Source: Escherichia coli | Lineage (GTDB): Bacteria > Pseudomonadota > Gammaproteobacteria > Enterobacterales > Enterobacteriaceae | NCBI RefSeq assembly: GCF_022846255.1 | Contig: NZ_AP025682.1 | Length of the DNA stretch: 64,000 nucleotides | Direction: 5' to 3' (one strand) | Shown: in pieces, positions 34,488 to 51,489 of the stretch | How the letters are laid out: the number at the start of each line of letters is the position of its first letter | Numbering within the stretch: position 1 is the first letter of the stretch | Made by a program: the position numbers and the translations under genes | The notes under the pieces: generated by a model | Told to the model about the DNA's origin: nothing | What the model saw: only the letters and a program-made list of their open reading frames with translations | The model's database searches: none

Positions 34488-34768
34488 ATGTTTTCGGCAC
34501 ATTTCTCCCCAGAGTGTTATAATTGCGGTCGCAGAGTTGGTTACGCTCATTACCCCGCTGCCGATAAGGAATTTTTCGCGTCAGGTAACGCCCATCGTTT
34601 ATCTCACCGCTCCCTTATACGTTGCGCTTTTGGTGCGGCTTAGCCGTGTGTTTTCGGAGTAATGTGCCGAACCTGTTTGTTGCGATTTAGCGCGCAAATC
34701 TTTACTTATTTACAGAACTTCGGCATTATCTTGCCGGTTCAAATTACGGTAGTGATACCCCAGAGGAT

Positions 34769-34990
<222 letters not shown>

Positions 34991-35102
34991 TTGTTTTACC
35001 GCCTGATGGGCGAAGAGAAAGAACGAGTAAAAGGTCGGTTTAACCGGCCTTTTTTGCGTCTGAGAGTTACGGGGAATAAATATTCCAGGATGGAGTATTG
35101 AG

Positions 35103-36152
35103 TTTGAAAACTGCCTGTACGGCAGTGAACAGCGCCCGCTTTTTTACCGCGTCAGCGCAGCGTTTCTAAGCTGCCTGTACGGCAGTGAACTCCCTGATTC
35201 AGTTGCGCTCCCCGACGAGCTGTTTCTAAGCTGCCTGTACGGCAGTGAACCGTTGGCGTTTCGCGGCAACAGGTTTTTCAATTTTCTAAGCTGCCTGTAC
35301 GGCAGTGAACGTAGTTTTGATTCCAGCGATAACTGCCTATTTATTTCTAAGCTGCCTGTACGGCAGTGAACGTAGTTTTGATTCCAGCGATAACTGCCTA
35401 TTTATTTCTAAGCTGCCTGTACGGCAGTGAACGATCAGGCCCGGCTTTCCCCACACGTTCGTATTTTCTAAGCTGCCTGTACGGCAGTGAACCGCCTGCC
35501 ATTCAACCTGCAAATAGTTTTCGATTTCTAAGCTGCCTGTACGGCAGTGAACGAACTGTGGCACGAGGTTGCAGGCGTAAGACTTTTCTAAGCTGCCTGT
35601 ACGGCAGTGAACGCCATCTTTGAATATAACGCCCCGATTGTGATTTTCTAAGCTGCCTGTACGGCAGTGAACCCCTACCGTTTTAATAAATGGGATTTGC
35701 ATTATTTCTAAGCTGCCTGTACGGCAGTGAACGCTGAGGTGTTTACAATGCGTGCCGTGCTGGTTTTCTAAGCTGCCTGTACGGCAGTGAACTCTGTTTT
35801 TCGTCAGCAGGATTAAACCAGGCATTTCTAAGCTGCCTGTACGGCAGTGAACTCTCATCAATTACGGGTTCGTTGGCTGGATCTTTTCTAAGCTGCCTGT
35901 ATGGCAGTGAACGTCTTCTGCGCATCCGTACCACTCACCAATGATTTCTAAGCTGCCTGTATGGCAGTGAACTTAATCGGTAACGTTGCTCTAATTCCCC
36001 CTCTTTTCTAAGCTGCCTGTATGGCAGTGAACCCAGCGAGAATTGAGGCTGTTTGCCGTGTGCTTTTCTAAGCTGCCTGTATGGCAGTGAACATAAACGC
36101 GCGCAGGTTGTTGAGGTGCTCGAGTTTCTAAGCTGCCTGTATGGCAGTGAAC
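35103..36152 (-). CRISPR. Type I-F CRISPR array A: 18 repeats, 17 spacers (16 unique)
   Basis: 28-bp repeat (RNA sense on minus strand GTTCACTGCCGTACAGGCAGCTTAGAAA) at 60-61 bp period with 32-33 bp spacers; degenerate terminal repeat at 35103..35130; five repeats at 35885..36152 carry a loop variant. Confidence 0.97.
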
Positions 36153-36423
36153 TGGAATAATAGCAGACTATCCGATTGATTTACTGTTAAAACTTACAAA
36201 ATCGCAGATTCAAACCCTTTTTCCAGACTTCAAAACAGAAATAAACAAAATCAATGAGTTACATTTCGCCCTAAAAAAAGGGTCGATTTGGTATTTCTTC
36301 AATCTCATATTTTCTGCATAGCTTTTGATAAACAATTGACCAGAACACATACGGTCATAATCTCCGTCCCGCGAACAGCGTGTTCATTGCGTAACCAAAC
36401 AAATCAATCTATATAAATTCTTC

Positions 36424-36452
36424 TTGACCGTTTCACTCCAACTCCCTATAGT
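36424..36452 (+). promoter_or_regulatory. Putative sigma-70 promoter of tRNA-Ser
   Basis: TTGACC - 17 bp - TATAGT followed by GC-rich discriminator (agcgcccc), about 40 nt upstream of the tRNA. Confidence 0.55.
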
Positions 36453-36495
36453 AGCGCCCCGTTGCCACCTATGAGGTCTGGCAGCAAAACAATTT

Positions 36496-36583
36496 GGTGA
36501 GGTGTCCGAGTGGCTGAAGGAGCACGCCTGGAAAGTGTGTATACGGCAACGTATCCGGGGTTCGAATCCCCGCCTCACCGCCA
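36496..36583 (+). tRNA. serW: tRNA-Ser (anticodon GGA)
   Basis: 88-nt sequence GGTGAGGTGTCCGAGTGGCTGAAGG...TTCGAATCCCCGCCTCACCGCCA with long variable arm and encoded CCA. Confidence 0.93.
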
Positions 36584-36594
36584 TCTTTAAAGAA

Positions 36595-36626
36595 GAGCTC
36601 GTACGAAAGTACGGGCTTTTTTTTCG
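36595..36626 (+). terminator. Rho-independent terminator after tRNA-Ser
   Basis: gagctcgtac-gaaa-gtacgggc hairpin followed by TTTTTTTT. Confidence 0.7.
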
Positions 36627-36704
36627 CATTGATGCACCTTAAATAAAAAACACGTACTTCCTCTTCGAAAGTACGTGAAAATCAGTGGCTGATTACCATA
36701 CCCA

Positions 36705-37718
36705 CTAGTCGTAGGATACGGCAAATATGGCTTTGCTTTGGACTTCTCCAGGCTGTAGTGCTTCCTCCTTCACGCGGACATATTTCGCGGTAATCGGGAA
36801 GGTGTACTGATTCTCAATGGCCGCCATTTTAGTTAGTTTGTTCATCAGAGTATCACCCAGCTTTAACGGTGTTGTTGCGTTACCATTATAAATCTGGAAC
36901 CCAACCCCCTTAGCACCATTAAGCGATGTGTTTTTCAGAATGGTTCCACTATCATCCCATTCACCGCGCGCAACTTTAAAAGTCACTGGATTAGTCGTGA
37001 CGTTATAAACACTGTCACAATTTAAAACCAGATCTATAGAACCTGATTTCGTGTTATTGGCAGATTGCATCTCACTTACCGTTGTTTCTGGCATTCTTAT
37101 TTCGTAAATCGGTTGCGAAAAACTACAGGTTGTGGGTTTGTGTTTGATGCTAAATTCTATATTCTGAGTGTAAGAAACATCACTATTTAGTCGCCCAGTA
37201 ACCCAACATAAAAGCCATGATATGATATTATTATTGCAAGAGTTATCTGTTAGTATGCTAATAGCGGGGCGCGGGATGGTTATCTTGTCGATATTGGTGG
37301 TTATAGTATGGTCTACTTTACTCGTTGGCCCAACATATTCTGCCTTAAGAGTGAACGGTTTGGTATTTATCACATCCTGAGTGTTATATTCTTTTGGAGA
37401 AGCACCCAAGGAGTCAGTTCCAGTAGAAACAGGAAAACTACTACTCTCAAGGTTAAATTTCATAAAAATTGATTTCCCCGAATCCGACTCTCTAAGTTCA
37501 ACGATATAATCTTTTAACGGTGTTGCATAATACATTTTATCGCTTGCTGCATTACATGTGAACGTATCGACTAAGTTTGTATGAATTACAGCCGTTACCG
37601 TATCTTGTGCCATATCCAGTTCTATCGTTTGGCTTGCTGTTGTATTAGGCCCCAAGGTACATTTAGCCTGCCCCAAAAAAGGCAAAGCCAGTAAAAACAA
37701 AAACCAATATTTCTTCAT
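36705..37718 (-). CDS. Fimbrial adhesin / minor tip subunit (chaperone-usher pilus)
   Basis: ORF 36705..37739 (TTG-initiated in the track); likely ATG start at MKKYWFLFLLALPFLGQA signal peptide; last gene of the operon; AT-rich codon usage. Confidence 0.6.
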   Translation of the reverse strand: MKKYWFLFLLALPFLGQAKCTLGPNTTASQTIELDMAQDTVTAVIHTNLVDTFTCNAASDKMYYATPLKDYIVELRESDSGKSIFMKFNLESSSFPVSTGTDSLGASPKEYNTQDVINTKPFTLKAEYVGPTSKVDHTITTNIDKITIPRPAISILTDNSCNNNIISWLLCWVTGRLNSDVSYTQNIEFSIKHKPTTCSFSQPIYEIRMPETTVSEMQSANNTKSGSIDLVLNCDSVYNVTTNPVTFKVARGEWDDSGTILKNTSLNGAKGVGFQIYNGNATTPLKLGDTLMNKLTKMAAIENQYTFPITAKYVRVKEEALQPGEVQSKAIFAVSYD

Positions 37719-37729
37719 AAACAAATCCT

Positions 37730-40222
37730 TTAACGACAAATATAAACTTTATTCTCATCAATAACGTTATCAAAGGTAATAGTGCAGAATTGTTCCTGCT
37801 GTTTATTAACCGAGACGCGAATCGACGCGGGAACATCATTGGTGCGAATAAATATCCGACTTCCCTGTCCTACTAAGCCCACATTATTGCCACTTTCATC
37901 TTCAACCTCATAACCAAACGGCAACGGAGAGCCATCAGGTCGTTGGGAGATGAAATACCAGGGCTTGCGTTTATCAGTCTCAAACTGCGTCATCACTACC
38001 GCACCACGATAAGGAACGGTGTTTTTACGGTTACCCAGTAGCGCCACATCGCTTTTACTGTCGGCAATATCCAACATCAACGTATTTTCACGATACGGCG
38101 TCAGGTTGTCATAAATAGCGTAGCCTCTGCTATCCGTGGTCAAGTAACGATATCCCTGCACCGCAGCCCCCTCCAGCCCAGGTGCTTTGACAATGGCAAA
38201 CGTATCGGAAAGTCTGGGAGCCAGTGCCACCCCGTCCGACCACGCGACGAAACCGCCTTGAATATTACCGCTAACCTGTTGATATCTTTTCGACTGGCTA
38301 TAGCTGCCACCAATAGTCGCCAATGGCGCACGCCAGGTCAGGTTTCCACCTGCTGTTGTTTCGCTGCCCTGGTGTTGATGGCTCAAGTTTGCCCCGTAGC
38401 TGAACTGATCGCGGCTCCCCGCTACACCGCTGAGGCTGGTATTATTCGACCGATAGCCGTCTTTATCAAAAGTGGTCGAGTTAGAAACAAATAAATCTCG
38501 TCGTTTTTCAGTGATTCCATCGCCCCACGAGAAGGGAATTGAGAAATATAAGTTAATGCGTCTATCTTCGCGGTTATCTTCGTCGTAGGTCTGGCTAACA
38601 GACAAGGTATAACTAAGGCGTTCCCAGGAGTTCGAATAGCTGAGTTGATAATCTTTCCCTGTCCCGCTGCGTTCCCAATAATCCCGCCATTGACCGCTGA
38701 CCGACAGATATCCCCAATTTTCCGGTAATGACTGGTTTATATTTACAGAAAAGCTGTTCTTACGACCAAAATCGTACTGATAATAGTCGGCGATATCATA
38801 AACTGAGTCATCTTCTCGATTATAACTTTTCCTGTTATTTGCCCTCACGTGATCGTTAAAAGTACGATAATCTCGAGAAGAATAACGCCAGGCCGCCAGC
38901 GAAAATTGCGTTCCACTTTGAGAGAGATATTTGTTCCACGCAATCTGATAACTTTGACCATTAAACACATCACCGTTATCTTGTTCACTGTGGGAATGGG
39001 TAAAATCAACAGATACCGCACCAATCGGTGTATTCCATCCCGTGCCGAGAACAAACGATGAGTAATTATCAGACAACTGCGTGCCAGCATAGAGAGTCAG
39101 CAAATTATTAAGGCCATACTGATAGCTTCCCTGAATAAAATCTGACTGATCGCTGGCTCCCTCAATACGGCTACGTCCGACAGCAAATTCATATTTCGAA
39201 ACGCCCGGTTGCAACATATTTGGTACCGATGAATAAGGTACACGATAACGCGACACCGAACCGTCAGCTTCTTTAACGGTAACTTCCAGATCGGCACCAC
39301 CACCTGCAAGTTGCAAATCATCAATGGCGAATGGACCTGGCGGAACTTCTTTCTGGTAAACCACAAAGCCATTTTGTTCGATAGTGACAAGTGCGTTACT
39401 TTGGGCAACACCACGCACCACAGGCGTAAAATTCTGTTTAGAGTTCGGCAACATCTGCATATCGCGCCAAAGGCGTACACCGCGAAAACGCACGGAGTCA
39501 AAAACATCAGAACCGGTATACATTTCACCAGCACGCAATGTGCCAAGAATATGTGGAATTCCGCGCTCCAGATATAACGTGTTACTCTTCCATTTACCGC
39601 TGTTATCGTCACTTTTCGTATAATTGGCATTTGAATGCAACTGCCAGCCCAGCAGATTCAAACCACTATTCAGATTTAAATAGCTACTTTTATTATCTCC
39701 TCCGTGCTTATAATTACTGTAATACTGACTGGCATAATAAGAAGTATATAATGCGTTAATCCCACGATCCCATGCCTCAGGTGGAACATATCCGCGTTCA
39801 TACTCAACAACATAGGCCTGGGGTACACTCAACTTCAGGTTAAAATGCCCAATATCATAGTCAACGCTACCTCCCTGTACTGCATCCCGAAGAGGTACGC
39901 ATTCTACGCCTTTATCAATATTAATTCCTTCAGTGAGGATACCTATTTGCTTTAACTGCTCCCAAGATAAACATGTCGCATCCGGATCATCTTTAATGTC
40001 GACATTATAGTGTCCGCGCCACTGATTATTCAGGTAAACATCCATATCATAGATACCTGGCATCGGCTTATCACTATCAATATGATAGTCAGAAATTTTT
40101 TCCCCATTTAATCCGCCAATCATAAAATGGGTGTCAAATGTTTCATCTTCCGCCCATGCAAGCGACGTTGCCAACACCGACAGGATAGCCAGCGTAATAG
40201 AATTAAGTTTAGACATAATCAA
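37730..40222 (-). CDS. Fimbrial outer-membrane usher protein
   Basis: 830-aa ORF, size and composition typical of FimD/PapC ushers, between chaperone and adhesin. Confidence 0.85.
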   Translation of the reverse strand: MIMSKLNSITLAILSVLATSLAWAEDETFDTHFMIGGLNGEKISDYHIDSDKPMPGIYDMDVYLNNQWRGHYNVDIKDDPDATCLSWEQLKQIGILTEGINIDKGVECVPLRDAVQGGSVDYDIGHFNLKLSVPQAYVVEYERGYVPPEAWDRGINALYTSYYASQYYSNYKHGGDNKSSYLNLNSGLNLLGWQLHSNANYTKSDDNSGKWKSNTLYLERGIPHILGTLRAGEMYTGSDVFDSVRFRGVRLWRDMQMLPNSKQNFTPVVRGVAQSNALVTIEQNGFVVYQKEVPPGPFAIDDLQLAGGGADLEVTVKEADGSVSRYRVPYSSVPNMLQPGVSKYEFAVGRSRIEGASDQSDFIQGSYQYGLNNLLTLYAGTQLSDNYSSFVLGTGWNTPIGAVSVDFTHSHSEQDNGDVFNGQSYQIAWNKYLSQSGTQFSLAAWRYSSRDYRTFNDHVRANNRKSYNREDDSVYDIADYYQYDFGRKNSFSVNINQSLPENWGYLSVSGQWRDYWERSGTGKDYQLSYSNSWERLSYTLSVSQTYDEDNREDRRINLYFSIPFSWGDGITEKRRDLFVSNSTTFDKDGYRSNNTSLSGVAGSRDQFSYGANLSHQHQGSETTAGGNLTWRAPLATIGGSYSQSKRYQQVSGNIQGGFVAWSDGVALAPRLSDTFAIVKAPGLEGAAVQGYRYLTTDSRGYAIYDNLTPYRENTLMLDIADSKSDVALLGNRKNTVPYRGAVVMTQFETDKRKPWYFISQRPDGSPLPFGYEVEDESGNNVGLVGQGSRIFIRTNDVPASIRVSVNKQQEQFCTITFDNVIDENKVYICR

Positions 40223-40230
40223 TCCCTGAT

Positions 40231-40911
40231 CTATTTGACGGTTTTTACTTTTTCACTCAAATAGTTCCCATGGTCATCAATCAGCGTAATTGTATATTGA
40301 TTGATGGCTAAGGCTGTGGTGATAGTCTTATCTGACCAGGGGGCTAATAACAACGTTTCGTGATTTATTTTTCCACTTCCCATCAACTCAGGAATAGTTA
40401 TCCAGTTTGCGGAGTTGTTTTTGATATTAATACCACCATTGGCATGCTTAATGCTCAGACGACGAAAACTTTCTTTATCTACGCCAGTAAGTCCCTCTGG
40501 GCGGTAGATAAATTTAATACGATTCTGCATGGCGAATTTTATGCCATTCTTATCTTCTAATTCGGGGCAATTAGGTGGGATGTCTAGCACATTAAGGAAG
40601 AATAGGCTTTCGCGATCTTTTGGTAGTGTATTCGCCAATTTTTTGATTTTGAGTTGTTGCCCTTCCCCCCCTTTTACGTGAGCGACCGGTGGCGTCAACA
40701 CAAACGGAACATGAATTTTTTCTGGGGGTAGACTGGTATCGCCATCATCAATCCATGACTGAACCAGGGCGCTACGATTACCTTCATTCATTAACTGAAC
40801 GGTAATCTCTTTTTTCTTTTCTGGATAAATAACACGAGTGCCGTAGATATAGACACCACTCCACGCAGGCGTGACTATGCCGGCCAGCAAGAAGGCTATT
40901 AATTTTTTCAT
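40231..40911 (-). CDS. Periplasmic pilus chaperone (PapD/FimC-like)
   Basis: 226-aa ORF with signal peptide MKKLIAFLLAGIVTPAWSG and chaperone-like N-terminal region. Confidence 0.8.
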   Translation of the reverse strand: MKKLIAFLLAGIVTPAWSGVYIYGTRVIYPEKKKEITVQLMNEGNRSALVQSWIDDGDTSLPPEKIHVPFVLTPPVAHVKGGEGQQLKIKKLANTLPKDRESLFFLNVLDIPPNCPELEDKNGIKFAMQNRIKFIYRPEGLTGVDKESFRRLSIKHANGGINIKNNSANWITIPELMGSGKINHETLLLAPWSDKTITTALAINQYTITLIDDHGNYLSEKVKTVK

Positions 40912-40964
40912 TAAACAATCCTTGTTTGAGAAATCGGCGACCGAAGCCGCCGATAAACACGATA

Positions 40965-41513
40965 TTAATCTGTCACGACAGTCATTGTCAGAGCAGAGTT
41001 AACCGGGCCAGCAGTCACCGCATCACCTGATTGCGCGTATTTCGCACTGAAATTTAGTGTATATTCATTAGAGCTGTTTTTTTCTAACTCAATACTTTTA
41101 TCACCGTCAATCTGTTGAGATTGCCCATCTGCACTCTCATAGTAGACAGCAAAACCAGCACCATTTGGGTTTGCCACAGTATTAATGGTGATATCGCTAC
41201 GATTTGCATCAAACTGACTTCTGGAAAACGTAATTCTGGGAGTCTCATCTCCTGTACATTTGACCGTCAGCGGTACAGTTGTTTTATTTGAATAACCATC
41301 ATAAATATAACCAGCGCTCTTACCATCAAATTGATCAGCACCAATATCGTTCATAGCAATAGTAGCCTGGCTATTTCCGATAAATTGACAAGTAGTTCCA
41401 ACCACATTACCGGTAATAACTAACTCACCCTGTTCACTCCCCTCCTCTGCAAAAGCCCCTGCACTCATAAAAAGAGAAGATAATACTGCAACTGCAATAA
41501 TTGAACGTTTCAT
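40965..41513 (-). CDS. Major fimbrial subunit
   Basis: 182-aa ORF with signal peptide and Thr/Ser/Gly-rich pilin-like composition; first gene of the operon, preceded by about 380 bp of AT-rich DNA. Confidence 0.75.
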   Translation of the reverse strand: MKRSIIAVAVLSSLFMSAGAFAEEGSEQGELVITGNVVGTTCQFIGNSQATIAMNDIGADQFDGKSAGYIYDGYSNKTTVPLTVKCTGDETPRITFSRSQFDANRSDITINTVANPNGAGFAVYYESADGQSQQIDGDKSIELEKNSSNEYTLNFSAKYAQSGDAVTAGPVNSALTMTVVTD

Positions 41514-41841
41514 AGTCTATTCCTTAACTAATTTATTCCAGGTGATCAAGAGTCTTTTTCCTCTCGGAAATGAATTTCGCAAATTACATTTTCTATCGCA
41601 ATGTAAACAATTTGTTTTTGTGATTTAAATCAAATTATCAAAAGCATATAACAAACAAAAACATCTACAAAAAATATTTTCCTTGTTTACTATTCGGCAT
41701 TATTTGATGTCTTTGCAAGGTAAATTAATACGTATAATTAATTGTGGTTTTTTATTTTAAATAAACATCCGCATACTGATAAAAGTGTAGGGCATTGAAT
41801 TATTTATTCTATTTCCAGCCAGAAATAGGCTTTTCAATAGA

Positions 41842-41874
41842 CAAAAAGACCTGACAGCAAGGCCAGGTCTTTTA
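41842..41874 (-). terminator. Terminator downstream of cas6f (bidirectional shape)
   Basis: gacctg-N10-caggtc hairpin flanked by A-run and T-run. Confidence 0.6.
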
Positions 41875-41892
41875 TACATTACAACTTACTAA

Positions 41893-42447
41893 TCAAAACC
41901 AGGGAATAGTGGCGGTTGCGCTTAATCCGTAACTACTAAATTCCCCTTTAACCGGTTCAGTAAGCAAATCACCATGACGGATAAACAGCTTGAACTGCTG
42001 CTGACTCGACAAACTATTCATATTAAGAAAGGGTAAATCGGTCCGCTGTTCAGCCTGCGTCGCCAGTCGCTCAATCGCCTGTTCTTCAGTTAGCCAGCCT
42101 TTTTTCACTGAACGCCTTAACAGACGCTGAGGGTTACTTTTTACCTGTACACGACTTACGACTCGCCAGCCTTTAATTTCAGGTACTAGCGTGACAGGCG
42201 AACATTGGCAGTAATCAGTAAGCCCTTTACGCCACGTAGAGGCTTCAAGTTCTTGCAATGCGGGGGCACTGCCGTGCAAGCGTAAACGCGCTCCCGGCGT
42301 AACATTCACGTCCGGGAAACTCACGCCGATATCACCTTGCCCTCTTGCACCTAATGCCCGATGCAATTTGGCAAATAACGCCGCCATCAACATTTCGCTC
42401 GAAAATTCAGGATCTGGCAGAACGCGGATCTCAAGGTAGTGATCCAT
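41893..42447 (-). CDS. cas6f: Type I-F CRISPR endoribonuclease Cas6f (Csy4)
   Basis: ORF 41893..42489; start placed at MDHYLEIRVLPDPEF; last gene of cas operon. Confidence 0.9.
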   Translation of the reverse strand: MDHYLEIRVLPDPEFSSEMLMAALFAKLHRALGARGQGDIGVSFPDVNVTPGARLRLHGSAPALQELEASTWRKGLTDYCQCSPVTLVPEIKGWRVVSRVQVKSNPQRLLRRSVKKGWLTEEQAIERLATQAEQRTDLPFLNMNSLSSQQQFKLFIRHGDLLTEPVKGEFSSYGLSATATIPWF

Positions 42448-42457
42448 TGGCAGCTCC

Positions 42458-43459
42458 TTATTCCGATTTCTCACCAAAGACACCGCCACGGATCAGCACA
42501 GCCATCACGTAGCGCTGCTGATCAACGTCTGGTTTCATCCCTTTAGTCACCCAATTGTCCAGTAAGGTATAAAAGTCGAGTTTTTCTTTCGGTTGACGGC
42601 AGGCCACACCGCGACTGGTTACAGAACCGTAAGGTTCCACGGCTATAGCCCCCAATTCATCAACCTTTGGATGCCAGGTATCAATGGTACGTAAAGCATT
42701 GCCAATCTTCTGAGAGTGAATACCGGCAATGCCAGCCACCTGGTATAACACGCGACTTTTACTACTGTTGCTGTCGAGTACCAGCTCCTGCGACGGAAAA
42801 ACTTCTTGCCCGGCACCAAGACGAACCTGCGCTTCAACGGTAAGCATCACCCACTCTTTTGCGCTTAATCCTTGCTCTATAATGGCCGCCAGCTGCGTGA
42901 CCGCTGCCTGTCCCTGGTCAAATTGACGTAAAGAGAAGTCATGGCTGTTAAAAGTCCAGGAAGTGTCGTTAGCAGTAACTTTCACCTGGATCTGCTCAGC
43001 ACCAATGCGGTTGCGCCACAGAAAACGACCATTTGCCAGATTCAGCGCATAGCGAAGCGCCAGCTCTTTAAAGCCATGTTCGCTGATGTAACCTTCAATG
43101 ACCCCGGAAAGCGCCTCCTGGTAAGCCATATCATTACATACTGACGGTGTGGATAAATTACCCAGCACACGCAGCGTAAACACCACCTTTAACGTATCCG
43201 CATCTACCGGAAGCGAAGCCACATCCACCCGTTGCAGGTTAGCTTTTTGGATTTCAGCATCCAGTTTTGTGGAGTCACTGGTAATCGTATTTTTCAAGCG
43301 ATTAGAGATAGTTCCGCGAACCGCTTTCTCCTGAATCTCAATGGGTTGCCATACATTTCCTTGCCAGTTACCTGCGTACATTACCGCGTCAGATGTTGCC
43401 AGTTTGCGCTCAAATGCCAGTACCGATGCCGTTTTTATTACTACAGGAGCCTTTGCCAT
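42458..43459 (-). CDS. cas7f: Type I-F Cascade backbone subunit Cas7f (Csy3)
   Basis: 333-aa [36 protein letters not shown]..., position in operon. Confidence 0.9.
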
Positions 43460-43469
43460 AATTATGTCC

Positions 43470-44393
43470 TTATTCTAAATCGTCATATTCATTAAAAGTA
43501 AAATCATCACCAGCTGGCATTGCCGAGCAATAGTAGCCAGTGTCCGTTGTGCGGTAACGCCACATCAGCGGTTGCAAGTCAGTTATGCGATGTAATCCGC
43601 GCCATTCGCCGATGCCATATACCGCTTCGGCAAAAGCAAATGGCGTCACGGTGTCGCGCGCATTTTCAACTTCACCGGGTGCGTAAACAGGAGAAATGCG
43701 TTGGTAGCCACACATTAACGGTACCAGGAAACCAGGCATTGGCTTCGGCTGATATGTCCATTTTGCGCTGTTGTCTTCTGCCGGAGATTCGGCCTGATAT
43801 TTAACGGCAGCAAAATCAAGCCAGGCATCCAGCAATGAGATGTCGGGATGTTGTTGGTGATGTTCAGCCAGCCATTCACTGCGATCGTAAAGCGCATAGC
43901 CAGGCATTAAACGCCAGATGATTTTACGCAGTTGCTTTTCATCTTCAGGCGCATGAAAAAGCTGTGGTTCGCGCATGTCAACAATGCTGCCGCCCGCCAG
44001 TTTGTGGCTCTGGCAGAGCATTTTCAGATGGTCACACAGAGCTTTTCTGCCATATTCACCATTGGTGATTTCCCCTTCACATTCAATGAGCAAAGATACC
44101 GTCAGATGCATACGGCCCTCTTCATTGAACGAAGCGGTTTTACCTTCTCTGGTTAGTGGGTTACGGGTGAGAGCAAACTGAAAATACCGCCCAGAGCTAT
44201 ATGCCTGAATATGTTGTTCATGGCTAACTACCGCGCAACCGTCAAAACTTACGCCAAAATCATCCGCCACTTTGCGAGAAAGCGCATGAACATAGCCGAG
44301 AAAATGGGTCATCGCCGGGAATCCCCAGGTCAACCCGGAGACGGCGTTAGCGTTTTCGATACGTATATGGGGTAACAAGAGCAGATAACTCAT
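43470..44393 (-). CDS. cas5f: Type I-F Cascade subunit Cas5f (Csy2)
   Basis: 307-aa ORF, operon position between csy1 and csy3, overlaps csy1 stop by 4 bp. Confidence 0.88.
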
Positions 44394-45697
44394 TTCAGCG
44401 CCTCCTGCAAAACAGCTTCCATTTCACGCATCCGTTGAGCGAACAGAGACTGGCTGCGCCATTCTCTTTGCTCGACAGCGCCCACGTCGAAACTGGATTT
44501 TTTCAGGCGATAGTTGAGCCAGCGCGCAAAATCATCGGCCACCGCCCCCTGCCAGTCGTTTTTCTCCCGCTCCAGTTTGAAAACCTCATCGGACAGGCTT
44601 CGCCACGGATCCAGCCAAAGCTGCTGATGGCGAGGTAAATCTTGCGATTGCGCTGACCATCCCTGCCATTTTTCTTGCTGAAAAGCGGATGCCTGCATGA
44701 ACAGCAGATCGATCAACTCATCAATATATTTCGCCCGCGCAGTTCGGATATGAACATTATTTATGTCAACCTTCAACAGGTAAGTCATCCGGGCGATAAT
44801 GCCCGAAGCCGCCCTATTGAAATCGCCGCGTAAGGCAAAAATACTGAGCATGTTTTGTGGTGCGCGATCCAGCGTCGCCCAGGTAGGCGGCATTGACGGC
44901 AACAGCCAGACGCGCCCCCCACGCACACTATTGAGCAATGAAATATTTTGCGGTTTTGTGCCTCCGAAATGCATTTCAGCAAGATTCGGGAAACGAATAT
45001 CTGGCTGTGAGTGCCATTTACCTGCTTTGTGCGCTTCGCGAATGGCTTTCGATTCCTCACTAAAGCGCACGGCGGTTAGCTTTTCATACATCGCCTGCGC
45101 CAGTGAACTGGAAAACAGTGGGCATAAGAGGTGATAACCATCCGCAACAGGGAAATAGATTTGTTTTGCCAGTTTATGGCTGGCAGGCCGTCCAGTTGTC
45201 CATGCCTGGCTAAACCCAGCTACCCACTGCTCCAGTTGCGCTTTATCCTCTGCAAACGTACTTAATGCCTGATAATCACCACGCTTCAGGCTGGCAAGCA
45301 GTGAATCTCCGTTCACATCAGTTTGTAGCAACTTTGCGACGTCAAGTGCAGCGGCGTTACCAATCGCGTCAGTAGCGACATTCGCCAACGATGCCGTGTT
45401 TAAATAGCTTTCGTTAGCGGAGGTTTCCAGATAAAAGCTACTGGCTTTAGAATCACCATGACTGAATTTAGCGCCATGAGTGACTAATTTGATTTGCCCG
45501 GCACGCTTTGCCGCATCCGTTAACCAGTGACGAGGCAGGTAGCGTGCCTCGAGTTCCTGCCGCTCCTGAGCGATGACGCTGGCATCCTCGCCCTGTTCCA
45601 GTCGCTTTGTTGCTTCTTTTTCAAAGGCCTCGACTTTGGGTTGCCTTCGCGAAGCGATATAGTCAGTGATAAATTGTATTAGCGCCGTTTTTTCCAT
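44390..45697 (-). CDS. cas8f: Type I-F Cascade large subunit Cas8f (Csy1)
   Basis: 435-aa ORF, AAGGAG RBS upstream of ATG, first gene of csy cluster. Confidence 0.88.
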   Translation of the reverse strand: MEKTALIQFITDYIASRRQPKVEAFEKEATKRLEQGEDASVIAQERQELEARYLPRHWLTDAAKRAGQIKLVTHGAKFSHGDSKASSFYLETSANESYLNTASLANVATDAIGNAAALDVAKLLQTDVNGDSLLASLKRGDYQALSTFAEDKAQLEQWVAGFSQAWTTGRPASHKLAKQIYFPVADGYHLLCPLFSSSLAQAMYEKLTAVRFSEESKAIREAHKAGKWHSQPDIRFPNLAEMHFGGTKPQNISLLNSVRGGRVWLLPSMPPTWATLDRAPQNMLSIFALRGDFNRAASGIIARMTYLLKVDINNVHIRTARAKYIDELIDLLFMQASAFQQEKWQGWSAQSQDLPRHQQLWLDPWRSLSDEVFKLEREKNDWQGAVADDFARWLNYRLKKSSFDVGAVEQREWRSQSLFAQRMREMEAVLQEALK

Positions 45698-45743
45698 CTC
45701 GGCTCCTTTCGTTAATCCATCAAATTGAAGTTGCTCCCTGACT

Positions 45744-45827
45744 TCACTGAAAAATCTCCGTAGCCCAACCAGGCTTCAGTACAACGACGCATACAGCAAA
45801 AGGGACAACACCCGTGGTGATAATCAT
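45744..45827 (-). CDS. Hypothetical 27-aa hydrophobic mini-ORF (MIITTGVVPFAVCVVVLKPGWATEIFQ); candidate Cre-repressed toxin or upstream leader peptide
   Basis: ATG preceded by AGGTGAG at 6-nt spacing; not in ORF track (too short); lies between the Cre-like target site and csy1. Confidence 0.2.
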   Translation of the reverse strand: MIITTGVVPFAVCVVVLKPGWATEIFQ

Positions 45828-45837
45828 GGATAGCTCA

Positions 45838-45871
45838 CCTAGAGGTATCTACGTTTTAATCTAGTAAAATC
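45838..45871 (+). promoter_or_regulatory. Putative Cascade binding site (CC PAM + 11-nt seed match to the psi-spacer), overlapping a putative minus-strand promoter and RBS
   Basis: cc-tagaggtatct at 45838..45850 is identical to the first 11 nt of the psi-spacer at 45969..45979; I-F PAM is 5'-CC on the non-target strand. Confidence 0.45.
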
Positions 45872-45940
45872 CATGCAATAACCAATAGTGATATTACCAT
45901 GCATGAAATATTTGCCACACAATGATTTAAAAACTAACAT

Positions 45941-46014
45941 TCACGCACTGCCGTTGGCAGCTTAGAAATAGAGGTATCTCCGGATACGGACTTGTAAACT
46001 GCCGTACAGGCAGC
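45941..46014 (+). ncRNA. Degenerate mini-CRISPR (psiR-psiS-psiR), CreA/CreR-like crRNA-resembling RNA gene
   Basis: psiR1 tcacgcactgccgttggcagcttagaaa (intact 8-nt 5' handle, shortened loop); 25-nt psi-spacer; psiR2 gtaaactgccgtacaggcagc (intact Cas6f hairpin, lacks 3' handle); orientation opposite to cas genes; possible promoter TTGCCA-17-TAACAT at 45912..45940. Confidence 0.5.
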
Positions 46015-46024
46015 CCGCGCCCCT

Positions 46025-49000
46025 TCACGGGGCGCGGTACACACCTAACCAGGGGTGATAACGCCAGTCATCGACCACATCTTCTTCACTGACGGGTACT
46101 CTCACCTCAGCAAACTTTTCCCCAACGCTTGCTATCTCACAACCTTGCTTATCAGCTAAATTCAACAAAACGTGTTGGTAATCCATCACGCCCCAGCAAG
46201 CGACACCGCTGGCGCATCTCACCTCTTCTCGCCTGAAATTCCCTTGCGCTTTACGCTCGTTGTCGCCCGTACGGGAATAGAAACGCGCTTCGCTTTCTTC
46301 ATCATCCATATGCAGAAAAAATACCGCCTCCGGCAAAGGGGAATAACGAAATGGCGTCTGGCGCTGTATCCAGCCGTTCCAGCTTAGCGGTGCACGCCAC
46401 CATTGCGCCGCCACCACATGTTTGCTTTTACTGCTCATCAATTCGGCGGATAAACGACTATGTTCTAGCTCCGCCAGTTTGTTGGCATTATTGGCAGACA
46501 GGATCCGCGGCAAGGCGTTAATCGTCCGGTAGTCCGCGATCGGAATCAGTTCGCAAATATCGTGGCTATTCAGCAAGTGTTCTTTTGTTTCGAAACCAGG
46601 CTTACAAAATGCGGGGGCTTTTTTCTGCAATGATTTGATATTGCTACGCAAAATAACCAGATTCTCACTGGTCGGCACATTTCTACGGTGGCGCTGAATA
46701 CGTCCGGCAAATTGAATTATCGAACGCATGGAGCTTGGTTCGATAATTCCCCAATCCGCATCCCAGTCACGCCCCACTTCTATAACCGATGTCCCCAACA
46801 CCACAAACAGATGGTGCGATTCCGGACGGTTATGTAAGGCATCTGCGATATCTTCGTTGTTCCAGAAATCGAGTTCGTTATGACGGGTAAAAGCGCGGTC
46901 CAGTCGCTTCTCAATATCTGAACGCACCGCCAGCGGGTGTCGGGAGTGGTAAACACAATAATGAATACAAACATTTTCTGGTGAAGGAATGGCAATCAGG
47001 GCTTTGGTCACTGCAACCAGTGGATTGATATTCGCGAAGCGCACCAGGCCCAGCGAAACGGTTTTACCGCTTTCGTGTAGCTGGCGATGCGCCTGATGCA
47101 ACTTCAGCATTTGCGTATGCACCGTCTGGGCCACACTTTCGGTAACATCCTGGATTGCAACTGATGCAGATGAAATCGAAGCAACACGCCCGAAATGCAG
47201 CCGCTCTTTTTCAGCCAGCATTACCGCCCGCCTGGCAACAAATTTTGTATGCGCATCGCGAAAGGCCGCTCCATCGCTAATTTGCGTGGCATCAGCATCG
47301 TTTTCGTCAAACCAGGCACAGCAAATATTGACGGGCCTGCCGTTGGTACCACAAGACGCCTGCCACATTTTACGCCCGGCAAGATAAGCCGCGAACAGCG
47401 CCTGAATCAGGCCTGGCGGAAGCGTCGCCGAAGAGAGTAACACCCGCGTTCCCAGCATCCCGGCCCAGTTCATCAAACGACATACCGCATGAAGATCAGC
47501 AATATCAAAGTCGTCGGGTTCGTCGAGCACTAAATCGCTGGTTAACAGACGCAACATCGCCGGAAGCTGTTTCCCGCCACGCACACCCTCGGTCGCGGAA
47601 ATAAGATGATCAATTGTCGCGACCAGAATCGGCGCGCTCACTAACGCCTTAAGTTTGCTGTCATCCTTCAACCATTTTTCCAGCGCCCCGGTATGCAGGC
47701 TGCCTTCGTACTTAACGAACTGTTGCTCCTCTGCCGGCGACTCTTGCGAGGCACTTCCACAATCATTGTCTATTTTTTCCTGCTGCCAGAGCTGTTTAAC
47801 TGCCGCCGAACCAATTAATACCGCCAGCTCATCCTCACCGAGTCCAAGTCGACTACGCAGAGCATCGCCGGTTTGCAAAGTCAGCGTACGCAATCCCAGC
47901 GCGACGGTAAAACGGCACCCTTCCCGCTCATCGGCAAGCGCATACATAATGCGGGCGTTCGCAAAGGTTTTACCGCACCCCGTCGAGGCCATATTAACGC
48001 CGAAAAATCCCTCCTCCCGGCTTCGTTCACGTAACGCTCGCGCCACATCCGAGGCTTTATCCTGCCAGCGATATTTCGCATCTGTAGCTCGCTGGCTAAA
48101 ACCTTTATGTCGGGCAATTGCCGGAAGAGAAGCCCGTGTGCGCATCAGCTGCCGCCCAAGCAAAAACGCATGATGTGCGACGCCGACCAGGTGCTCGTCC
48201 ACCCGTTGTTTGAGTGCGCCACTTTGCCTATCGCTATTTGCCCAGACGATATAATCCGGCTCCTGCCATTTTTGCTGCGCATCGCTTGAGGAATAGTAAT
48301 GATCGGCAAGCATCAGGCAAAAACGCGCCATATGTGAGGGGAACAACTGTTCCATCAGCCCGTATGTCTTTAAACCGAGCGCGTTACTTGCCCGGCGGGA
48401 AATCTGATGTGCTTTTTCTCGCCAGCTAGCACTCTGAAGCGGTGTTCCAGCCGGAAATTGCCAGACGTGCGCAAAATCCTGTTGTAACCAGTCATCTCTG
48501 CGGTGGTTAACGGCATTCCAGTCAGCATTAAGTTGCCTTTCCAGCCAACTTTCACACCCTTTGCAAGATTGTTCCGGTTGTGGCGAAAGATTCTCCGGAA
48601 TTCGATGATGGGAAAGGATCAGCCAACCTACCGTTTTGGCTAGCGGTTGCAGCGAAGTAAATGGGCTATCTGAAAATTGAGGCGTGTCTTTTAGCAGGCG
48701 TTCCAGAATCGCAGATTCATCATCTGCCGTAAGTTCGCCAAGCTTCGCCAGCCACACATCGTCGGGCCGATCACCGACAAACGCCTGAAAGAGCCGCAGT
48801 GAGATCCATTCATGTCGGTATGGTTGATAACTGCGGGCATTCTTTTGGGTCAGGCTTTGCTGAAAGCTGCGTCCGGATTTTCCAAAATCATGAAATAACC
48901 CGGCGATGGCTGCCAGCAGCGCAATGCTTTCCGCACATTGCCAGCGGTTTTCTTCCTTGTTCACCAGGCTGGTTTGCGTTGTGCGATTTGTGGGAACGCG

Positions 49001-49258
49001 CCCCTGAGCATTAAAACGACGAATATTACCCACAATCCACATCAACTCAATTTGTCCATTCTTCTTTAGCCAGTGACATGCCACTGCGGTATTTCGCCTG
49101 GCAGTTTTGCGCAGTAAACGGCGGAGTGTATTAACGCCTTCCAGAGTAATCACTGTTTGCCATGCGGCATCACCTGTACGTTCAGCAAACTGATCAATAA
49201 TACGGCAGCTTTCCACGCGGGCGTTTTTTGTACAGCGCGAGATAATCAGAACATTCAT
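46025..49258 (-). CDS. cas3: Type I-F Cas2-Cas3 fusion (Cas2 domain + HD nuclease + SF2 helicase)
   Basis: 1077-aa ORF; N-terminal Cas2-like region; HD motif LLAAIAGLFHDFGK; overlaps cas1 stop by 4 bp. Confidence 0.92.
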   Translation of the reverse strand: MNVLIISRCTKNARVESCRIIDQFAERTGDAAWQTVITLEGVNTLRRLLRKTARRNTAVACHWLKKNGQIELMWIVGNIRRFNAQGRVPTNRTTQTSLVNKEENRWQCAESIALLAAIAGLFHDFGKSGRSFQQSLTQKNARSYQPYRHEWISLRLFQAFVGDRPDDVWLAKLGELTADDESAILERLLKDTPQFSDSPFTSLQPLAKTVGWLILSHHRIPENLSPQPEQSCKGCESWLERQLNADWNAVNHRRDDWLQQDFAHVWQFPAGTPLQSASWREKAHQISRRASNALGLKTYGLMEQLFPSHMARFCLMLADHYYSSSDAQQKWQEPDYIVWANSDRQSGALKQRVDEHLVGVAHHAFLLGRQLMRTRASLPAIARHKGFSQRATDAKYRWQDKASDVARALRERSREEGFFGVNMASTGCGKTFANARIMYALADEREGCRFTVALGLRTLTLQTGDALRSRLGLGEDELAVLIGSAAVKQLWQQEKIDNDCGSASQESPAEEQQFVKYEGSLHTGALEKWLKDDSKLKALVSAPILVATIDHLISATEGVRGGKQLPAMLRLLTSDLVLDEPDDFDIADLHAVCRLMNWAGMLGTRVLLSSATLPPGLIQALFAAYLAGRKMWQASCGTNGRPVNICCAWFDENDADATQISDGAAFRDAHTKFVARRAVMLAEKERLHFGRVASISSASVAIQDVTESVAQTVHTQMLKLHQAHRQLHESGKTVSLGLVRFANINPLVAVTKALIAIPSPENVCIHYCVYHSRHPLAVRSDIEKRLDRAFTRHNELDFWNNEDIADALHNRPESHHLFVVLGTSVIEVGRDWDADWGIIEPSSMRSIIQFAGRIQRHRRNVPTSENLVILRSNIKSLQKKAPAFCKPGFETKEHLLNSHDICELIPIADYRTINALPRILSANNANKLAELEHSRLSAELMSSKSKHVVAAQWWRAPLSWNGWIQRQTPFRYSPLPEAVFFLHMDDEESEARFYSRTGDNERKAQGNFRREEVRCASGVACWGVMDYQHVLLNLADKQGCEIASVGEKFAEVRVPVSEEDVVDDWRYHPWLGVYRAP

Positions 49259-50244
49259 TGATCAGCCTTAGCCAGTGCCTGGGCAGTTTCCTGCAAAGAG
49301 GTGATCATGACATCCAGCGCATCCGTTTGTTGAAAGATATTGATGCAGCGTAGACGAAACTCCTGGGCATCTTCACCTGCCATCGCGGCGATAAATGCTT
49401 GCGGCATCACAAGGGCATCTTTAATCAGATCGGCAAGGTCAAAAACCAGCCCGCCGCGACGTGTTTTACCGTGCATTACTGCTAAACCGTGCGGGATCCC
49501 GGTTACCCACGCCGCCACTGCTGCCAGTCCATAAGCCAGATAATTCCCTTGATCGAGGAAGCGGTTGGCCATATCAATACCACCGCCCCGTTTTGCGCGA
49601 GTGAAATCGCCATACCCCACTGTTTGACTGACCATTTTGTATAACGCTTTAGTCAATTTGGCCTCTACGAGCATAAGCTGCGTATGGTTTTCTGCCGCGT
49701 CTATTTCTTCACGAGTACGATTCAGGAGGGTATGCAGCGCATTAACATCAGGTTGAAATGCGTGTTCACGCTGCATTTTCGAGCTGGACCAGTGCTTATC
49801 GATATGTGTCAGGCGGATTAACTGAAAACGTTTCGCGGCGGCAAGTCGTTTATCTTCAGCAAACCAAAAAGAAACCCACTGCTGGAGATACTCTGTAGGG
49901 CGATATTCACTTTGTGGGCTGAGCCAGGAGACATCAACATCCACTTCATTTGCCGAATACAGCGGCGTGCCATCCGTACCACAAAAGCCCACCATCACCC
50001 CGGCATGAGCAAATTCACGCATCGCCGCCTGAGTAACGGAAGTTCCCATTCCCAACATCAATGCCGTGGTATTCGCAATGGGGATATTCCAGTAGTACGA
50101 CTCTTTACCTTCGCTGGTGACATACTCCACCCGCCCACCATTCACCTGTACCCGGCATTTTTCCAGATAATAAATATTGGCGCGTTTGGAGTGGAGAATG
50201 GTTTTGAGATCGGAAGGCGTGAGGTAATTCGAAGACATAAACAC
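49255..50244 (-). CDS. cas1: Type I-F CRISPR integrase Cas1
   Basis: 329-aa ORF upstream of cas2-3, first gene of cas operon. Confidence 0.9.
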   Translation of the reverse strand: MFMSSNYLTPSDLKTILHSKRANIYYLEKCRVQVNGGRVEYVTSEGKESYYWNIPIANTTALMLGMGTSVTQAAMREFAHAGVMVGFCGTDGTPLYSANEVDVDVSWLSPQSEYRPTEYLQQWVSFWFAEDKRLAAAKRFQLIRLTHIDKHWSSSKMQREHAFQPDVNALHTLLNRTREEIDAAENHTQLMLVEAKLTKALYKMVSQTVGYGDFTRAKRGGGIDMANRFLDQGNYLAYGLAAVAAWVTGIPHGLAVMHGKTRRGGLVFDLADLIKDALVMPQAFIAAMAGEDAQEFRLRCINIFQQTDALDVMITSLQETAQALAKADQ

Positions 50245-50400
50245 ATCCTGTGATTATTTTATATTTGAAGGTATTGGGCTTAGTACAGCATTGATTTATG
50301 TGCTGAAAATTGATTTCTGTCGCAATTATTACGATTGTTATTGTATGCTGAAGCTAATGGTTTGAAGTTGAGAGCGTCATGATATGACCAAACGTCTACC

Positions 50401-51268
50401 ATTATCGTATTGTGAAACTACCTGTACGGCAGTGAACCGCGTAGAGCTGCTGCGCAAACTCGACACTCATTTCTAAGCTGCCTGTACGGCAGTGAACCCT
50501 CGTTCATCAAGGTGCTCAAAGCTTGACATTTTCTAAGCTGCCTGTACGGCAGTGAACGCCAAGAACGCTGTTACCGCTTCCCTGTGCGCTTTCTAAGCTG
50601 TCTGTACGGCAGTGAACCCAGATTGCCGAAAACATCGCCTTTGATGAACTTTCTAAGCTGCCTGTACGGCAGTGAACGGGCGCGGTGTCGTCCAGGATTT
50701 GGAGGCAACTTTCTAAGCTGCCTGTACGGCAGTGAACAACAGGTCGTCCAGCGCATCCCACGGATCCGGTTTCTAAGCTGCCTGTACGGCAGTGAACATC
50801 GCGCACACGCAGTCTTACATTTGCCACCATTTCTAAGCTGCCTGTACGGCAGTGAACGAGTGATTATTATGGCCCAATCGGACGATGACTTTCTAAGCTG
50901 CCTGTACGGCAGTGAACCTCCACCCGTGGTAAGCAGAAAGGGCCGTAACTTTCTAAGCTGCCTGTACGGCAGTGAACTGATCTGTTGCGATACTGACAGT
51001 ATCGTTAGCTTTCTAAGCTGCCTGTACGGCAGTGAACTGTTTTTTTGACGTGTAAACCGGGCGGTTTTTTTTCTAAGCTGCCTGTACGGCAGTGAACATC
51101 TCCGTATTTACTGTCCTCCCTGCTATCCATTTCTAAGCTGCCTGTACGGCAGTGAACTGCCAGTTTCGAAAACGTGCAGCAAATGCAGTTTTCTAAGCTG
51201 CCTGTACGGCAGTGAACTACCTTAATTTGAAATGAACCTTTGCCGCATATTTCTAAGCTGCCTGTACG
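50401..51268 (-). CRISPR. Type I-F CRISPR array B: 15 repeats, 14 spacers
   Basis: same 28-bp repeat at exact 60-bp period, 32-bp spacers; degenerate terminal repeat at 50401..50428 next to cas1; repeat at 50581 has a stem substitution. Confidence 0.97.
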
Positions 51269-51431
51269 GCAGTGAACTCAAATACTACACGTTTAGCTCG
51301 TTGTTGATAAAGAAAAATCATCTCATTTTCCTGCTGCCACCCTTTTTTATTCTTACCTTCCAGCACCATTAATTATCAACAACTTACCTTCACCTCCAAA
51401 AATAGGGTTTTCACCGTTCCCCCCTACAAAC

Positions 51432-51465
51432 AAAAAGTCCGTAACCTCTTTCGAGATTACGGACT
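51432..51465 (-). terminator. Rho-independent terminator after clpA
   Basis: gtccgtaa...ttacggac hairpin followed on minus strand by TTTTGTTT. Confidence 0.65.
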
Positions 51466-51489
51466 TCACCAACCTACCTAACAATTAGA

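Follow-up and report, generated by a model that had tools for sequence, protein, structure and literature searches.

The chromosome of the Escherichia coli strain analyzed here (NCBI RefSeq assembly GCF_022846255.1, contig NZ_AP025682.1) carries four genes of a chaperone-usher pilus between serW, a tRNA-Ser gene, and cas6f, a gene of a type I-F CRISPR-Cas system. How did a pilus operon come to lie there, and is its placement an accident of insertion or a property of the locus? The stretch analyzed, 64,000 nucleotides in length, is referred to as the window, and positions are those of the window unless a relative is named. Its cydDC genes share 97.7–99.3% identity with complete E. coli genomes, which agrees with the species assignment. 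The initial annotation had described the four genes as an AT-rich fimbrial islet abutting the tRNA gene and had raised its co-mobilisation with the cas genes. The four-gene, AT-rich operon at the serW–cas6f site was confirmed; the tRNA islet and the co-mobilisation with cas were not. The joint explanation that we consider very probable is that an intact pilus operon of the Yeh/Stc/Yhl group occupies a locus shared across the genus Escherichia, that its alleles have been exchanged there, and that it has escaped from there onto mobile elements.

Composition, family and expression of the pilus operon

The four genes are co-directional on the minus strand and fill positions 36705–41513, which are the exact limits of their open reading frames (ORFs). 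In order of transcription they encode a YehD-type major pilin of 182 amino acids (40965–41513), a PapD-like periplasmic chaperone of 226 amino acids (40231–40911), an outer-membrane usher of 828 amino acids (37730–40216, the length being counted from 40216 in an ORF of 37730–40222) and a two-domain tip adhesin of 337 amino acids (36705–37718, with the ATG at 37718 in an ORF of 36705–37739). NCBIfam and Pfam models assigned them to the YehD-type pilins, the PapD-like chaperones, the PapC-type ushers and the Fimbrial-domain adhesins, respectively. The major pilin matched the YehD-type equivalog PRK15220 with 226.6 bits (cut-off 136), the chaperone matched PRK15218 with 393.8 bits (cut-off 372), and the usher matched PRK15217 over its full length with 1500.5 bits (cut-off 933). 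Precomputed Pfam assignments were PF00345 for the chaperone, PF13954 (PapC_N), PF00577 (Usher) and PF13953 (PapC_C) for the usher, and a Fimbrial domain for the adhesin. The second-best model for the chaperone was StcB, at 281.7 bits and under its 500-bit cut-off, and the adhesin reached 25.2 bits against the YehA model PRK15216, far under the cut-off of 452. The set has the components of a classical chaperone-usher pilus, namely a PapD-like chaperone, a three-domain usher, Fimbrial-fold pilins and a two-domain tip adhesin. In the protein collection, the 90%-identity cluster containing the major pilin also holds many Csy3 proteins, which is a clustering artefact.

Identity to the proteins of E. 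coli K-12 amounted to 64% for the usher and YehB, 54% for the chaperone and YehC, and 34% for the pilin and YehD; the adhesin showed 24% identity to YehA by BLASTP, confined to the C-terminal pilin domain. The K-12 Yeh fimbriae are encoded by yehDCBA (named yehABCD in UTI89) in the context metG-mrp-yehE...rcnB. By contrast, the operon studied here lies between serW and cas6f, has no yehE-like gene upstream and encodes an adhesin whose head has no detectable sequence similarity to YehA. Since both locus and adhesin differ, identification with the Yeh fimbriae proper was rejected; Escherichia sp. E1V33 and E. whittamii hold a canonical yeh locus in addition to this operon (L046 and L059, where L and a number denote a locus of the comparison set). 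Identification with the Yhl (Yeh-like) pilus was also rejected. Yhl is reported from over 90% of E. coli belonging to phylogroup E (PMC12778044), whereas megablast matched the present operon in 103 of 5,426 complete E. coli genomes, a count that would miss relatives below about 80–85% identity, and the adhesin head is 11% identical to the receptor-binding domain of YhlD (PDB 8V9V).

The closest relatives outside Escherichia, with an adhesin of the same sequence family, are operons of Citrobacter spp. and Salmonella enterica subsp. diarizonae, whose ushers are 79–82%, chaperones 75–80% and adhesins 51–65% identical to those of the window, the usher at the Citrobacter yeh locus being 82% identical. 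Unlike the window operon, they occupy the canonical metG-mrp-yehE...rcnB-thiM position, away from tRNA-Ser and cas genes. By family models and identities, the operon is best placed in the Yeh/Stc/Yhl group, probably of gamma4 type, as a third paralogue beside canonical yeh (metG-rcnB) and Yhl, and would thus be the third member, as yet unnamed, of the Yeh/Yhl pilus group.

The adhesin consists of a predicted receptor-binding domain (residues ~19–190) and a pilin domain (191–337). No significant sequence match to a PDB entry was found for it, either with the single sequence or with a profile of 27 sequences. The head belongs to a new sequence class, to which structure prediction gives a Yeh/Yhl-like fold. 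As inferred from the protein families, the four products would be exported by Sec along the standard pathway, the chaperone would fold and stabilise the pilins by donor-strand complementation, and the usher would polymerise a rod of the 182-residue major pilin beneath a single two-domain adhesin. The N-terminal domain of the latter would bind a ligand of host or dietary origin, most likely a gut glycan or a mucosal one. YehD is reported to bind pectin and YhlD colonic mucosa (PMC12778044). Because the head has no sequence relative among solved structures, its receptor probably differs from those of Yeh and Yhl, and the new head class predicts a third specificity beside those of YehD and YhlD. 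A differing receptor would bear on the choice of gut niche by Escherichia lineages.

The AT bias noticed initially was substantiated, the segment 36625–41891 having 41.9% GC against 49.9% for the window. It culminates in the 379 bp upstream of the major pilin gene (41514–41892; 28.5% GC), and the pilin gene itself has a GC content at third codon positions of 0.29. Within these 379 bp, a terminator hairpin of cas6f with a 12-bp stem (41844–41873, minus strand) is followed by an AT-rich region of 330 bp (41514–41843, minus strand; about 27–28% GC) with a promoter-like site at 41782–41754, and both together separate cas6f from the pilin gene. At the other end, a terminator-like hairpin with a T-run (36651–36677, minus strand) lies just past the stop codon of the adhesin gene and marks the end of the operon. 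Given the terminators after cas6f and after the adhesin gene and the promoter-like site between them, the operon looks like a transcription unit of its own. The upstream region is 87–91% conserved across the operon-bearing loci of other Escherichia. Cryptic chaperone-usher operons of E. coli such as yeh are reportedly repressed by H-NS; here, positions 41514–41843 would constitute a regulatory region and a likely H-NS target, and silencing by nucleoid proteins at this region of 28% GC would probably keep expression of the operon low in culture. An Rfam scan of positions 34500–52000 returned CRISPR repeats only, with no match in the AT-rich upstream region. The latter contains a single GATC site and no convincing repeats of an invertible element, and thus gives no sign of Pap-like or fim-like phase variation.

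A locus shared across Escherichia and the probable exchange of its alleles

In K-12 the corresponding interval consists of clpA, serW and infA only, as initially stated. Of 5,426 complete E. coli genomes, 240 of them positive for type I-F csy3, not one has the operon at the serW–cas6f site; most E. coli with type I-F systems are thus devoid of it, and a presence at this position in most E. coli regardless of CRISPR-Cas content, which would have spoken for an ancestral rather than inserted operon, was not observed. In three of three ordinary I-F loci of E. coli (TK3896, BCE049 and 025542-1), serW is located within the type I-F locus, in the order infA, CRISPR array, serW, 70 bp, cas6f...cas1, array, clpA. 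Hence the operon replaces a 70-bp serW–cas6f spacer by 5,267 bp.

The absence from this site in complete E. coli genomes stood; the arrangement proved not to be local to one strain, as it recurs in other Escherichia. An adhesin of exactly the window's sequence was found in 27 assembly blocks, and all contigs of sufficient length, among them that of a second E. coli strain (L009), show the cas-operon-serW context. The order cas6f-operon-tRNA-Ser-infA was observed in six loci of E. marmotae (L019, L020, L022, L076, L077 and L079), in E1V33 (L030) and in albertii-labelled genomes (L073–L075). In E. whittamii (L031, L063 and L064), the module of cas genes, operon and tRNA-Ser is present with the neighbourhood of serX, not infA, on the far side of the tRNA gene. 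The gene aat differs by 11–13% among E. coli, E. marmotae, E1V33 and the albertii-labelled genomes, which identifies these four lineages as separate species-level groups; the E. whittamii loci do not include aat. Placement between serW and cas6f is therefore that of an accessory locus shared in the genus, unusual for E. coli and normal for its sister species. Searches of the literature returned no description of the operon, whether at serW, in E. marmotae or on phage-plasmids.

In E. whittamii Sa2BVA5 (L031/L063, GCA_014836715.1) and in L064, the full order is clpS-clpA-array-cas1...cas6f-operon-tRNA-Ser(GGA), and ghrA, ycdX, ycdY and csgG...csgD lie on the promoter side of the tRNA gene. These serX-side neighbours point to a rearrangement with its breakpoint in the identical serW/serX genes.

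Ratios of nonsynonymous to synonymous substitution (dN/dS), computed against five other loci, were 0.05–0.15 for the usher, the chaperone and the pilin domain of the adhesin. On these comparisons all four pilus genes appear to be under purifying selection, in an operon that is intact and selectively maintained. Divergence of the operon did not follow that of its surroundings. Between species, ushers were 93.7–97.7% identical against 87–89% for aat and 89–95% for csy3, whereas within E. marmotae they were 96.7–97.7% identical although aat was 99.7–99.9% identical. An usher less diverged than aat between species and more diverged within one of them argues for allele exchange at an old shared locus. 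Adhesin heads that are 40%, 65% or 95% identical occur beside ushers that are 98% identical, with synonymous divergence (dS) saturated in the heads, and identity of the major pilin ranges from 53% to 97% among relatives. These sequence patterns are best read as old allele classes, above all of the adhesin head and the major pilin, shuffled between species at the shared locus. The exchange would probably proceed by homologous recombination, with the conserved serW and cas flanks as arms. The serW–cas6f interval is a variable cassette site in the genus, which bears on CRISPR-based typing at the clpA–infA locus.

A variant of this explanation, differing in history only, holds that the window lineage did not retain the operon from an ancestor but gained it from another Escherichia species by recombination through serW and cas6f. 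It is the strongest of the alternatives, with a chance somewhat short of even. Identity to the operons of other species is 94–97%, against 88–93% for the flanking aat and cas genes; cas6f and csy3 of the window are E. coli-like (96–98% identical to those of L008 or L007), and immediately after the stop codon of cas6f the sequence takes the form found in the other species. The rarity of the operon in E. coli points the same way. However, no candidate donor exceeded 97% identity over the operon, and the E. coli strain of L009 shares the operon with the window at 99.3–99.9% identity despite differing neighbours (csy1 86.8%, cydD 98.4%), which implies some history inside E. coli. A copy mobilised by the insertion sequence IS1, described below, further implies a third, E. 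coli-like donor. The cas operon of the window was also considered as foreign, being ~92% identical to those of other E. coli, but L007 and L008 also share 92%; the I-F operons of E. coli are equally mosaic among themselves, and this candidate was dropped.

The serW alleles of these loci fall into two forms. In the window (T-arm at 36555–36575), a T-stem pair is changed on both sides (CCGGGG...CCCCGC), a form common to the window, ordinary I-F E. coli, E1V33 and E. whittamii; the form GGGGG...CCCCC is found in K-12, E. marmotae and the IS1-mobilised copy. Apparently the allele of serW moves together with the local haplotype.

Several observations weigh against the explanation of an intact, shared and exchanging operon, or against parts of it. 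The distribution rests on a few dozen loci rather than a census, and does not separate retention from introgression. In the pilus genes dS was 0.12–0.31, generally below the 0.24–0.49 of the neighbouring cas genes; this fits exchange, and AT-rich codon bias could partly explain it. One E. marmotae locus (L020, 5207–5754) has its major pilin gene split into two ORFs, and in E1V33 (L030, 5475–6020) this gene contains an in-frame stop; both lesions could be occasional inactivation or sequencing error. In another E. marmotae genome (L078, GCA_036174025.1), a Mu-like prophage takes the place of the usher after the chaperone gene, from about position 12300. These damaged relatives indicate that the operon is dispensable. 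As to function, the Yeh/Yhl-like fold of the adhesin head rests on a predicted model at 11–15% identity, where only fold comparison is informative, and the proposed H-NS silencing derives purely from base composition. The Mu-like prophage of L078 includes a repressor gene, the MuA and MuB transposase genes, kil and gam.

Junctions with serW and with the CRISPR-Cas operon

The serW gene (36496–36583, plus strand), encoding tRNA-Ser(GGA), is intact, with the same sequence as in ordinary I-F E. coli. Downstream of it, a terminator hairpin with a T-run, read from the sequence, occupies 36596–36624 (plus strand) and is the last stretch common to operon-free I-F E. coli; the left junction of the operon segment was therefore placed at 36624/36625. 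The window matches ordinary I-F E. coli perfectly up to 36624, and the perfect match resumes at the cas6f stop codon (41892), with the right junction at 41891/41892. The cas6f terminator of the window differs from the version in ordinary I-F E. coli, which lack the 63-bp flank 41830–41892 containing it; among operon-bearing loci of other Escherichia this flank is 92–97% conserved.

These junctions bear on the reading of the initial annotation, in which the operon is a recent genomic islet integrated site-specifically at the 3' end of serW. In its favour are the low GC content of the segment and the absence of the operon from K-12 and from this site in the 240 I-F-positive complete genomes. The genes serW and serX are island integration sites in enterohaemorrhagic E. 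coli (EHEC), and are described as O-island sites. A Yeh-like operon also lies between two copies of tRNA-Ser(GGA) in Enterobacteriaceae bacterium RIT691. However, the segment 36625–41891 contains no integrase gene, its sole ORF of at least 150 codons beyond the four pilus genes being a frame of 177 amino acids nested in the usher gene. The search for direct repeats of the serW 3' end found its terminal 25-mer once in the whole window, with no second copy even when three mismatches were allowed. No direct or inverted repeats flank the segment, no insertion sequence (IS) is present, and neither junction carries IS1 or plasmid sequence. Moreover, the left junction lies beyond the serW terminator and not within the tRNA gene, and at least four further Escherichia lineages show this arrangement, with an usher divergence of 3–6%. 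Whether the operon was retained or introgressed, site-specific insertion would be excluded, and we regard a recent islet as very unlikely. An IS1 composite transposon was likewise rejected as a description of the window copy, IS1 ends being found only in relatives (L001, L002, L026 and L027).

The RIT691 locus (L051, 5644–12461) encodes an usher 62% identical to that of the window, and each of its two full tRNA-Ser(GGA) copies is followed by two RtT repeats (Rfam RF00391). The right copy is serX, with ghrA and csgG next to it, and exopolysaccharide genes form the left flank; this locus is a second, independent association of the Yeh-like pilus family with tRNA-Ser(GGA). In E1V33, three tandem RtT-like elements (L030, 10403–10904) lie between serW and the adhesin gene, with scores of 41–42 bits, slightly under the gathering score of 45 bits. 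Such elements were also found downstream of the tRNA gene in L031 and were absent from the window and from E. marmotae, so that the length of the serW–adhesin spacer varies. Some of the E. coli matches likewise have RtT annotations next to serW.

Functional coupling of the operon to the type I-F system, through read-through from cas6f or shared regulation, appeared more improbable still. The operon is co-directional with the cas operon and immediately downstream of it, and stands next to cas6f in every native chromosomal locus seen. By contrast, the strong 12-bp-stem terminator and the 330-bp AT-rich promoter region stand between the two, all 240 I-F-positive complete E. coli genomes are without the operon at the site, and the mobile copies inspected have no cas genes. 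With no consistent co-occurrence either in I-F-positive genomes or in mobile copies, an accessory gene set of the CRISPR-Cas system was rejected as a candidate. The proposed co-mobilisation with CRISPR-Cas fared no better, since cas genes were absent from both kinds of mobile copy inspected, whether or not these carry serW sequence. Past adjacency, nothing indicates a functional link between the operon and CRISPR-Cas.

Mobile relatives and the CRISPR arrays

A copy of the operon about 94% identical to that of the window was found in about 35 complete E. coli genomes. The five such copies inspected all lie among IS1 sequences; the left end is preserved in four of them (L001, L002, L026 and L027), which begin inside serW. 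In plasmid pBS15R-A_1 (L002), a full IS1 abuts position 32 of serW, in the anticodon loop (window 36527). Next come the 57 nt at the 3' end of serW, the serW terminator, a spacer of 80 bp that matches the window at 100% identity, and the operon; the cargo ends at an inverted IS1, at window position 41829. Compared with the window, the usher of this IS1 module is 98% and the adhesin 97% identical. From the serW fragment it follows that the source of the cargo was a serW-linked copy on a chromosome, and from the K-12-type T-arm of the module, in place of the compensated variant of the window, that the donor was a further lineage. The operon would thus have escaped from the chromosomal locus at least once, captured by two IS1 copies, one of them inserted in the anticodon loop of serW.

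The flanks of the module in pBS15R-A_1 are 98.6% identical to phage P1. The two IS1 copies (8162–8929 and 14231–14996) are mutually inverted, and the module lies between lysis and tail-fibre genes. No target-site duplication was found around the module in the P1 backbone of this plasmid. P1 presumably carries a resident IS1, and we suspect that the module was acquired by recombination there. Chromosomal copies of the IS1 module lie in an island next to tRNA-Leu, together with an integrase, a type I restriction system and Hhe.

A second allele, 85–91% identical to the window operon (usher 89%), lies beside phd-doc on plasmids of 106–114 kb whose replication genes are 91% identical to those of phage SSU5, and is also found on chromosomes in an IS1-flanked form. 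Mobile copies are accordingly either bounded by IS1 or placed beside phd-doc and IS3 debris; unlike the window locus, they have a truncated serW or none, no cas genes, and a very different major pilin (51–53% identical). The operon had no match in the phage collection, where the phage-plasmid copies would not appear, being filed as plasmids. That the chromosomal copy is conversely a remnant of a phage-plasmid or IS1-transposon insertion might be suggested by the related operons on phage-plasmids of the P1-like and SSU5-like kinds and within IS1 or IS3 debris, but is most improbable. The window has an intact serW and junctions without IS1 or plasmid sequence, and the serW 3' 57 nt, terminator and identical 80-bp spacer of the IS1 module could stem only from a chromosomal serW-linked copy. 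For the IS1 module this reading is thereby contradicted; for the SSU5-type allele, transfer may have run in either direction.

In the IS1 module, the half-serW scar directly documents the capture of a chromosomal pilus operon and its move onto P1-like phage-plasmids, and literature searches found no paper describing such adhesin cargo on them. The operon reveals no new kind of system, and this traceable escape is the most interesting by-product of the analysis. A broader proposal, which we put forward tentatively and think rather less likely than not to hold in full, is that the 3' flank of tRNA-Ser(GGA) genes (serW, or serX in E. whittamii and RIT691) is a genus-wide exchange site for Yeh-family operons, at which ancient classes of adhesin heads and pilins persist as trans-species polymorphisms and alleles are spread by phage-plasmids. 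If so, a temperate phage-plasmid of the P1-like or SSU5-like kind could change the adhesion specificity of its host.

The pilus operon is set in a locus that begins with infA (34772–34990, plus strand) and CRISPR array A (35103–36152, minus strand; 18 type I-F repeats of 28 nt with a 60-nt period), whose leader side (36153–36495) faces serW. Beyond the operon follow the type I-F cas genes cas6f, csy3, csy2, csy1, cas2-3 and cas1 (41893–50238, minus strand) and array B (50410–51277, minus strand; 15 repeats), which adjoins clpA. None of the 31 spacers of the window matched the phage collection, and no spacer match to the operon-bearing phage-plasmids was present among the plasmid matches listed. 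Among these, the only single-spacer match was that of spacer 35433–35464 to a SprT-like gene of conjugative plasmids. The match was perfect in most of 105 plasmid records (from Klebsiella, E. coli, Salmonella and others), 94 of which are conjugative and many about 34 kb in size.

An ORF of 174 amino acids on the minus strand (35337–35861) is an artefact of translated CRISPR repeats, with a recurring VHCRTGSLE motif, and represents no gene. Array A contains two adjacent spacers with identical 33-nt sequences (35311–35343 and 35372–35404), which points to duplication of a repeat-spacer unit. Its five serW-proximal repeats (35885–36152) carry a C-to-T variant, CTGTATGG in place of CTGTACGG, and the far-end repeats of the arrays (at 35103 and 50410) are degenerate.

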